Shown here in pieces: positions 11,690 through 36,845 of a stretch of DNA of 64,000 nt (positions are counted from its first letter, which is position 1; the number at the start of each line of letters is the position of its first letter). Origin of the DNA: Candidatus Bathyarchaeia archaeon (GTDB lineage: Archaea > Thermoproteota > Bathyarchaeia > 40CM-2-53-6); NCBI GenBank assembly GCA_050013255.1, contig JBEKFP010000001.1, forward strand, positions 832,001-896,000, written 5' to 3'. The notes under the pieces were generated by a model that did no database searches, had not been told where the DNA came from, and saw only the letters and a program-made list of their open reading frames with translations. Both the position numbers and the translations under genes were made by a program.

Positions 11690-11983
11690 ATGTCAATGCT
11701 GCAGGAGGAATTCGATTTGTGGCTGAGCAGCAAGTACTCAAATCCCTTCTGGGTCGGGCACCATAGATTCGAAAAGAGCGTGACCGGTGAGATTCGAGTG
11801 GACAATGGAGTGTTCAGGAGAGAAGAGGCTGCTATACTCTTTCGAATGCTCAGGTCACGCGACCCCTTCACGCGGCTTAACGCGAAATTCGTCATATGGG
11901 AGAGAAACCGAAGCCTACTGGTTCTCCTCGTAATTGTCACGGTCATAATGCTCGCATTAGTAATTATAAGAATCCGAGAATGA
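11690..11983 (+). CDS. Hypothetical protein with C-terminal TM helix
   Basis: GGTGG RBS, operon-like spacing after the UPF0182 gene. Confidence 0.7.
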   Translation: MSMLQEEFDLWLSSKYSNPFWVGHHRFEKSVTGEIRVDNGVFRREEAAILFRMLRSRDPFTRLNAKFVIWERNRSLLVLLVIVTVIMLALVIIRIRE

Positions 11984-23290: not shown

Positions 23291-23298
23291 CTTTAATT
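23291..23298 (+). promoter_or_regulatory. TATA box of tRNA-Lys
   Basis: CTTTAATT about 30 nt upstream of the tRNA 5' end. Confidence 0.55.
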
Positions 23299-23327: not shown

Positions 23328-23465
23328 GGGTCCGTAGCTCAGCCAGGTAGAGCGGCGGATTGGGCATGTGTTTGCCAGGCCGAAGCTCTTAACAGCCTGA
23401 GGGAGACCCGAAGGTCGAGAACCACAACAGTGGCCGACAAGGTTCAAATCCCTCCGGACCCGCCA
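23328..23465 (+). tRNA. tRNA-Lys(CTT) with three introns (23359-23384, 23392-23405, 23420-23440)
   Basis: Spliced: GGGTCCGTAGCTCAGCCAGGTAGAGCGGCGGGCTCTTAACCCGAAGGTCGAGGGTTCAAATCCCTCCGGACCCGCCA, a full cloverleaf with encoded CCA. Each intron has a bulge-helix-bulge-like motif. Confidence 0.9.
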
Positions 23466-36642: not shown

Positions 36643-36682
36643 GTGTGTGTGCGTATAGTGGTGCGGGCGTCGAGATTTGAAC
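36643..36682 (-). repeat. 3' end of a second tRNA type (GTTCAAATCTCGACGCCCGCACCA) plus flank
   Basis: T-loop, acceptor strand and ACCA on the minus strand with no 5' half. Confidence 0.75.
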
Positions 36683-36845
36683 TGTTATAATGGCACGCCT
36701 TCGATCGTTGTATGAGCTTTGCCAAATCAATCGTTTTCTCCGCTGGCGGTTCAATTACCTCCGGACCCGCCACTTTAGACTCAAATCTCATTCTGTTGGA
36801 GAATTATCCTCGTCAAATCCGTCTGGGCAGCGGTTCGGCGCCGCA

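Follow-up and report, generated by a model that had tools for sequence, protein, structure and literature searches.

A three-intron tRNA-Lys(CUU) gene in a peat/soil Bathyarchaeia archaeon and the predicted order of its intron removal

Multi-intron tRNA genes with 'nested' introns are known from the Thermoproteales genera Pyrobaculum, Thermofilum and Caldivirga (Sugahara et al. 2007/2008, as cited in PMC4033280, PMC3728597 and PMC8450103), and reviews give a maximum of three introns per tRNA gene in Thermoproteales (PMC4033280). Precedent for nested bulge-helix-bulge (BHB) motifs and for the 37/38 intron leaving last is found in PMC8450103 and PMC3728597, and the latter cites Sugahara 2008 for the principle of order-dependent intron removal. 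In the tRNA-Ile(UAU) of the red alga Cyanidioschyzon merolae, RT-PCR has shown the 37/38 intron to be the last to leave, with no fixed sequence for the two others, and free energies calculated for the motifs correlated with the order of removal (Soma et al. 2013, PMC3728597). In some Asgard families, according to a 2026 preprint, a tRNA gene can hold as many as five intervening sequences. As for the enzyme, it has been established that (alpha-beta)2 endonucleases with a Crenarchaea-specific loop cleave relaxed motifs (PMC3241643, PMC5829648), and that Lys44 of the Aeropyrum pernix enzyme allows it to cut bulge-helix-loop (BHL) motifs and introns at non-standard positions; the published relaxed substrates retain one flanking helix, and the BHL mini-helix mimics the anticodon arm (PMC3241643). 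Order-dependent splicing of closely spaced introns is already built into tRNAscan-SE 2.0. Our literature searches combining Bathyarchaeia with tRNA introns returned no description of such genes in that lineage.

In this study, a stretch of 64 kb (the window, G000:C1:832001-896000) was analysed from the genome of a Bathyarchaeia archaeon of 2.46 Mb, 50% G+C and three contigs. A pre-tRNA-Lys(CUU) gene was located on the forward strand at window positions 23328-23465, with three introns of 26, 14 and 21 nt at positions 30/31, 37/38 and 51/52 of the standard tRNA numbering (Table 1). Read directly, the 5' end of this segment is an acceptor/D-arm sequence and the 3' end comprises a T arm, the complementary acceptor strand, a discriminator G and CCA. 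In-silico removal of the three introns leaves 77 nt, which ARAGORN calls as tRNA-Lys(ctt) and draws as a complete cloverleaf (acceptor, D and T stems of 7, 4 and 5 bp, encoded CCA); at its top end the anticodon stem has a G27.A43 mismatch, the sole irregularity. A purpose-written cloverleaf scorer counted 7 acceptor, 4 D-stem, 4 anticodon-stem and 5 T-stem pairs in the spliced product, so that by both programs intron removal restores a canonical cloverleaf tRNA, and a SPLITS-style recursive BHB remover of our own, run without prior information, returned the identical three introns. In the single-intron orthologues L022-L024, GCTCTTA is contiguous with ACCCGAAGG, and this uninterrupted run fixes the anticodon as CTT. 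The ARAGORN call on the spliced 77-mer bears out the initial annotation, which had read the locus as tRNA-Lys(CTT) with introns at the same three positions.

Table 1. Features of the tRNA-Lys(CTT) locus and of related loci. Positions are those of the window unless another sequence is named; a hyphen inside a bulge marks the cut.
Feature	Position	Strand	Description
TATA-like box	23291-23297	+	CTTTAAT, 31-37 nt upstream of tRNA position 1
Exon 1	23328-23358	+	Positions 1-30: acceptor 5' strand, D arm, anticodon stem 5' strand to G30
Intron 1	23359-23384	+	26 nt, 30/31, full hBHBh' motif
Exon 2	23385-23391	+	7-nt micro-exon GCTCTTA, positions 31-37, carries anticodon CTT
Intron 2	23392-23405	+	14 nt, canonical 37/38, mini-intron, hBH / bulge-helix-loop type
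Exon 3	23406-23419	+	Positions 38-51: anticodon stem 3' strand, variable loop, first 3 nt of T stem
Intron 3	23420-23440	+	21 nt, 51/52, HBh' type
Exon 4	23441-23465	+	Positions 52-76: remaining T arm, acceptor 3' strand, discriminator G, CCA (23463-23465)
Intron 1 motif	23353-23356 with 23379-23382	+	Central helix CGGC/GCCG; bulges GG-A, AA-G
Intron 1 inner flank	23360-23363 with 23375-23378	+	4 bp
Intron 1 outer flank	23349-23352 with 23386-23389	+	AGAG with CTCT
Intron 2 motif	23386-23389 with 23400-23403	+	Central helix CTCT/AGGG; bulges TA-A, AG-A
Intron 3 motif	23414-23417 with 23435-23438	+	Central helix GTCG/CGAC; bulges AG-A, AA-G
Intron 3 flanks	23422-23425 with 23430-23433	+	Inner 4 bp after A.C mismatch; no contiguous outer helix
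Degenerate exon 4 copy	36748-36772	+	13.3 kb downstream; 23/25 identical, with a disrupted T stem
3' end of a different tRNA-like sequence	36643-36682	-	Adjoins the degenerate exon 4 copy
tRNA-Lys(TTT)	G000:C1:291268-291457	-	190 nt; D-loop, 30/31 and 37/38 introns of 27, 24 and 30 nt
Endonuclease alpha subunit	L065:1213-1785		190 aa
Endonuclease beta paralogue	L066:1204-1767		187 aa, 12-residue gap at the loop
RtcB ligase	C1:110968-113778	-	Profile match in two pieces

The warning that standard scans may miss this gene proved justified. ARAGORN in default mode called no tRNA anywhere in the 64-kb window, and Rfam at gathering thresholds gave no match in it; at a permissive threshold the Rfam tRNA model covers 23328-23462 end to end with large insertions, scoring 26.8 bits against a gathering score of 29. 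With introns allowed (-i), ARAGORN names the wrong tRNA, a tRNA-Ser(gga) with a 40-nt intron, i(35,40). This call raises a different parse, in which the locus would be tRNA-Ser(GGA) with one long intron or would carry a GGA anticodon with a shifted second intron, and our own BHB remover also yields a GGA solution with a cloverleaf score equal to that of the CTT parse. However, the tRNA body is class I with a 5-nt variable loop and not of the serine-type class II, the shifted intron of the GGA parse is without an outer helix whereas the CTT parse gives four outer pairs, and the same mature sequence is obtained across all species under the CTT parse only. Moreover, orthologues without intron 2 (L022-L024, from other families) carry GCTCTTAACCCGAAGG, the anticodon loop and the next stem strand, uninterrupted. 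On the class I body, the absent outer helix and the L022-L024 sequence we rejected the tRNA-Ser(GGA) call, and we regard another tRNA at this locus, such as a serine tRNA, as very improbable.

Read as tRNA-Lys(CTT), the gene has introns that fit the archaeal splicing endonuclease closely. This enzyme acts on a 4-bp helix set between two 3-nt bulges and cleaves each bulge behind its second base. All three introns present two such bulges around a 4-bp central helix with the cuts in this register, and every splice motif listed in the initial annotation is present in it. The chance of a 4-bp helix (G-U allowed) at a fixed register is about 0.02, and that of three together about 8e-6. At least one flanking helix accompanies each motif: intron 1 has both (4 + 4 bp), intron 3 the inner one only, and intron 2 the outer one only, and that only with intron 1 gone. 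Within intron 2 there are at most two possible inner pairs, closing a 3-nt loop, and a single outer pair (G31-C39) while intron 1 is present; its outer helix, CGGG/CCCG, is the anticodon stem itself and becomes contiguous only after intron 1 is removed.

Orthologues were parsed from 21 congeners, from other genera of the order and from at least 117 metagenome contigs, and gave at least 105 distinct variants of the three- or four-intron form (78 and 27, respectively, among the matches listed). While the parsing pattern fixes most exon letters and cannot by itself show exon invariance, the exon positions that it leaves free are identical in all 105 variants among the matches listed. The introns have diverged in these variants: among the matches listed there are at least 83 distinct sequences of intron 1 (15-28 nt), 55 of intron 2 (13-17 nt) and 84 of intron 3 (19-31 nt). 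The splice helices are kept nonetheless, with four of four central pairs in 105/105, 105/105 and 102/105 variants for introns 1, 2 and 3, respectively, among the matches listed, which speaks for the motifs far more strongly than the chance estimate above. As a control, the partner strand was slid by one to three positions. The inner helix of intron 1 is paired at 77%, compared with 17-59% after sliding, and shows as many as six pair types at a single position; that of intron 3 reaches 81% against 22-43%, and its pairs have changed in a compensatory manner (G-C/A-T and A-T/C-G/G-C). In congeners the inner helix of the D-loop intron has likewise been kept by compensatory changes. For intron 2 an inner-helix signal is absent (48% paired against 42-69% in slid controls, over at least 55 sequence versions), and its central helix is formed by four pairing-compatible intron strands across groups, AGGG, GGGG, AGAG and GGAG. 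In other genera, exon G26 is replaced by A26 and the facing intron C by T, turning CGGC/GCCG into CAGC/GCTG, which is a two-sided exon-intron compensatory change. The first inner pair of intron 3 in our genome is an A.C mismatch, shared with the closest relative L002, where 65 variants among the matches listed have G-C and 16 have A-T; it looks like a half-completed compensatory substitution.

Among species-representative genomes the pattern scan gave 34 matches, of which 30 are titled Candidatus Bathyarchaeota or Bathyarchaeia, one is titled 'uncultured archaeon' and three have bacterial MAG titles, and many of the 34 come from peat or soil projects. The organism is on this basis placed outside the Thermoproteales. 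Among the matches listed, nearly every one of the 111 distinct sequences upstream of orthologues has the CTTTAAT box at -37 to -31, and this box probably acts as a promoter. A second tRNA-Lys(CTT) gene was looked for in the genome and none was found; apart from this locus, a lysine anticodon together with a similar 5' end occurs only in the tRNA-Lys(TTT) gene.

It might be argued that the locus is a decayed, non-functional tRNA relic whose insertions merely resemble introns, given that standard scans make no call there, that the anticodon stem carries the G27.A43 mismatch, and that the locus adjoins a mobile element at the edge of an island. Against such decay stand the constancy of the free exon positions in the 105 variants while introns diverge and splice helices are kept by compensation, the conserved TATA-like box upstream, and the fact that this is the only CTT gene found in the genome; the G27.A43 mismatch itself is kept in every orthologue, other families included. 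A pseudogene is therefore highly improbable. The locus is probably a functional gene, through which this Bathyarchaeia archaeon of peat or soil encodes tRNA-Lys(CUU) in a single copy, a claim that forms part of the explanation graded as a whole below.

Further tRNA-like sequences were observed in the window and in relatives. In the degenerate exon 4 copy, similarity sets in with the very first base of exon 4, precisely where intron 3 ends. A split tRNA completed by this copy was considered and rejected, there being no 5' half nearby and the T stem being broken. On the metagenome contig Ga0187886_1002732 (L071) the gene occurs twice, with about 10 kb between the copies (1877-1940 and 11845-11908 (-)); they span at least the promoter-proximal region through exon 3, and the promoter-proximal sequence is identical while the sequence farther upstream differs. 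This pair may represent a whole-gene duplication bracketing an island.

Intron number also varies among relatives. A fourth intron of 22-26 nt was found in the tRNA-Lys(CTT) gene of 8 of the 21 congeners (L013, L014 and L016-L021; e.g. L013, minus strand from 1436) and in 27 of the 105 variants among the matches listed; it lies in the D loop after linear position 17, with the helix TCAG/CTGA and a well-kept inner helix of 5-6 bp. In a third genus the tRNA-Lys(CTT) gene has D-loop, 30/31 and 37/38 introns and is without the one at 51/52.

The question of whether intron 1 has to leave before intron 2 follows from the bases that the two motifs share. Bases 32-35 (CTCT) pair in the outer helix of motif 1 or in the central helix of motif 2, but not in both at once, a conflict that the initial annotation had noticed for CTC and that a direct reading of the sequence confirms; G31 is a bulge base in motif 1 and part of the first outer-helix pair in motif 2; G27 and C28 belong to the central helix of motif 1 and also to the anticodon stem that motif 2 needs. 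Because of these shared bases the motifs at 30/31 and 37/38 cannot coexist, and the BHB of intron 2 is predicted to be blocked until intron 1 is gone. The dependence runs one way, as removal of intron 2 changes nothing for intron 1, and removal of intron 1 provides intron 2 with its canonical stem. Since intron 2 has no conserved inner helix, the anticodon stem is the sole flanking helix open to it.

The cost of forming each motif was computed from constrained partition functions with nearest-neighbour energies. These energies are rough, in that the mature tRNA is not folded as a cloverleaf, for which reason only differences between states and no absolute folding energies are used, and in that the intron 1 hairpin lies one register step off the BHB; read in this way, the motif of intron 1 costs about 5.8 and that of intron 3 about 3 kcal/mol regardless of the other introns, and the motif of intron 2 costs 15.7 kcal/mol in the full precursor, 10.5 without intron 1 and 8.5 alone. 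In the full precursor, intron 2 is predicted to cost about 10 kcal/mol more than introns 1 and 3. If the anticodon stem is made to close over intron 1, the cost is 23.4 kcal/mol. All 21 congeners give the same ranking, with intron 2 last. The cost of intron 2 drops upon removal of intron 1 in 16 of the 21, and when intron 2 stands alone in 21 of 21 (mean -5.0 kcal/mol), while the costs of the other introns in these congeners are indifferent to their neighbours. The proposal that intron 2 depends structurally on the removal of intron 1 thus agrees with the geometry, the comparative data and the folding energies of 21 congeners.

Two genes with endonuclease domains were found in the genome, both with N- and C-terminal Pfam domains. 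The alpha subunit is closest to the catalytic alpha chains of A. pernix, Sulfolobus tokodaii and Pyrobaculum aerophilum, and keeps the Tyr/His/Lys catalytic contexts as well as a Lys aligned to A. pernix K44 in the Crenarchaea-specific loop. The paralogue has a gap at this loop and lacks the catalytic His, by which it is classed, from its sequence, as the structural beta subunit, and we infer that the host enzyme is of the broad-specificity (alpha-beta)2 type. An RtcB ligase is present as well, so that at the level of encoded proteins the genome possesses both an endonuclease for non-canonical intron positions and a ligase. The RtcB match falls into two pieces (profile 1-60 and 49-426) about 1.4 kb apart within one stop-free frame of 1039 aa, which suggests that RtcB contains an intein.

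A permissive enzyme is also central to the main alternative, namely that the three introns are real and are removed without obligatory order, a relaxed (alpha-beta)2 endonuclease catching transient conformers so that removal is stochastic and independent. The host alpha subunit has the specificity loop and the Lys that enable the A. pernix enzyme to cut BHL motifs, the competing motifs are alternative folds of one RNA and could interconvert, the energy model is crude, and a helix-poor intron 2 might still be cut before intron 1 at a low rate by an enzyme of relaxed specificity. On the other hand, intron 2 in the full precursor is without either flanking helix (1 bp outside, no conserved helix inside among the 105 variants), whereas the published relaxed substrates still have one; its cost lies well above that of the other two and falls in the congeners as given above; and in C. 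merolae, the sole multi-intron system tested by RT-PCR, the 37/38 intron is always last. With a pattern allowing either intron to be absent, the metagenome matches listed (at least 117) span 62-78 nt, that is, with both introns, in DNA contigs; no spliced form or intermediate was among them, and they have no bearing on the order. Unordered removal seems unlikely, if well short of negligible. That intron 1 leaves before intron 2 is well supported in silico, with a host enzyme that is permissive, and the likely pathway, at odds of roughly two in three, has introns 1 and 3 removed in either order and intron 2 afterwards.

We therefore propose an ordered maturation of this tRNA with intron 2 last, and put the probability of this explanation as a whole, in which transcription, splicing and order are predicted and the layout of the gene, its motifs with their conservation and covariation, and the presence of the enzymes are observed, at about 0.7. 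Transcription from a TATA-box promoter about 30 nt upstream would give a precursor of about 140 nt with three bulge-helix-bulge introns, in which the heterotetrameric (alpha-beta)2 endonuclease would cleave every 3-nt bulge behind its second base, leaving the exons to be rejoined by RtcB. Introns 1 and 3, each with an inner helix of its own, would be recognised in the primary transcript in either order; opening of the D stem would be needed for intron 1, whose motif takes up AGAG and C25. The 14-nt, helix-less intron 2 would be supported only by the anticodon stem from C28-G42 to G31-C39, which is split by intron 1, and would become a proper substrate only after excision of intron 1 and ligation of the exons. 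Because the anticodon stem is split in this way and CTCT is shared with the outer helix of intron 1, intron 2 would be removed last.

Rather than a regulatory device, this order is most likely a by-product of the geometry that arises when 30/31 and 37/38 are both occupied by introns. The same pair occurs in at least three other genes of the genome, namely those for Tyr(GTA), CAT and Lys(TTT), and mini-introns of 14-23 nt at 37/38 are the norm among its resolved tRNA genes, so that the lack of a helix in intron 2 is no special adaptation to ordering. These observations come from a whole-genome census with our own BHB remover under strict filters, which resolved 13 of 28 other loci and serves as context only. 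In the lysine series, the CUU gene has 3-4 introns and the UUU gene apparently four, and a self-sufficient intron at 30/31 always goes with a helix-less mini-intron at 37/38. It is conceivable, but in our view unlikely, that this Bathyarchaeia tRNA-Lys series is more than a by-product and enforces a sequence of maturation steps, the anticodon loop being finished only once the tRNA body has been repaired, as a built-in checkpoint or timing device; were this true, tRNA genes with at least four introns would have in Bathyarchaeia a second major reservoir, one unreported so far.

As regards the remaining tRNA genes, the tRNA-Lys(TTT) gene has about 32 extra nt in the variable region, which by eye hold a fourth intron at 43/44 with three of four central-helix pairs; our BHB remover resolved no intron in this stretch. 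CCA is encoded in every tRNA gene resolved in the genome. The Rfam tRNA model finds 18 genes above threshold and 25 at E<=1 in a genome rated 100% complete, and nearly all matches are 90-190 nt long, from which it follows that interruption affects most of the tRNA genes and that standard scans overlook about half of them; such interruption explains why a genome rated complete shows a mere 18 tRNA genes above threshold.

The present locus is of a kind already known and changes no principle; the lineage is new, with no published report found. The initial annotation's statement that triple-intron tRNAs are rare and known mostly from Thermoproteales is out of date here, given the Bathyarchaeia host, the other genes of its genome with introns at 30/31 and 37/38, and the Asgard genes with up to five introns. 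What our results add is an extension of heavily interrupted, nested-intron tRNA genes to mesophilic peat/soil Bathyarchaeia, and a ready mutational series of 105 natural variants (among the matches listed), with fixed exons, drifting introns and one helix-less intron, which may be used to test the substrate needs of the (alpha-beta)2 splicing endonuclease. The Asgard genes of the preprint resemble ours in that most tRNA genes are interrupted (mean above two intervening sequences), by BHB motifs, with D-arm introns missed by annotators, but they belong to a different phylum, and Bathyarchaeia and splicing order lie outside the scope of that preprint. The nuclear tRNA-Ile(UAU) of C. merolae likewise has three BHB introns, located in the D arm, at 37/38 and in the T arm, and its order of removal is the same ranking as that computed for our gene. 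However, C. merolae is a eukaryote with a different endonuclease, its order is experimental where ours is predicted, and its motifs fold independently (not nested, according to the authors) whereas introns 1 and 2 of our gene share nucleotides. The Thermoproteales share with our case the (alpha-beta)2 endonuclease, close introns of which one must be out before the next BHB forms, and genes that simple scanners miss. They are hyperthermophilic crenarchaeotes in contrast to a mesophilic peat/soil Bathyarchaeia archaeon, and congeners of the latter carry four introns in tRNA-Lys(CTT), one more than the maximum of three stated for Thermoproteales (PMC4033280).
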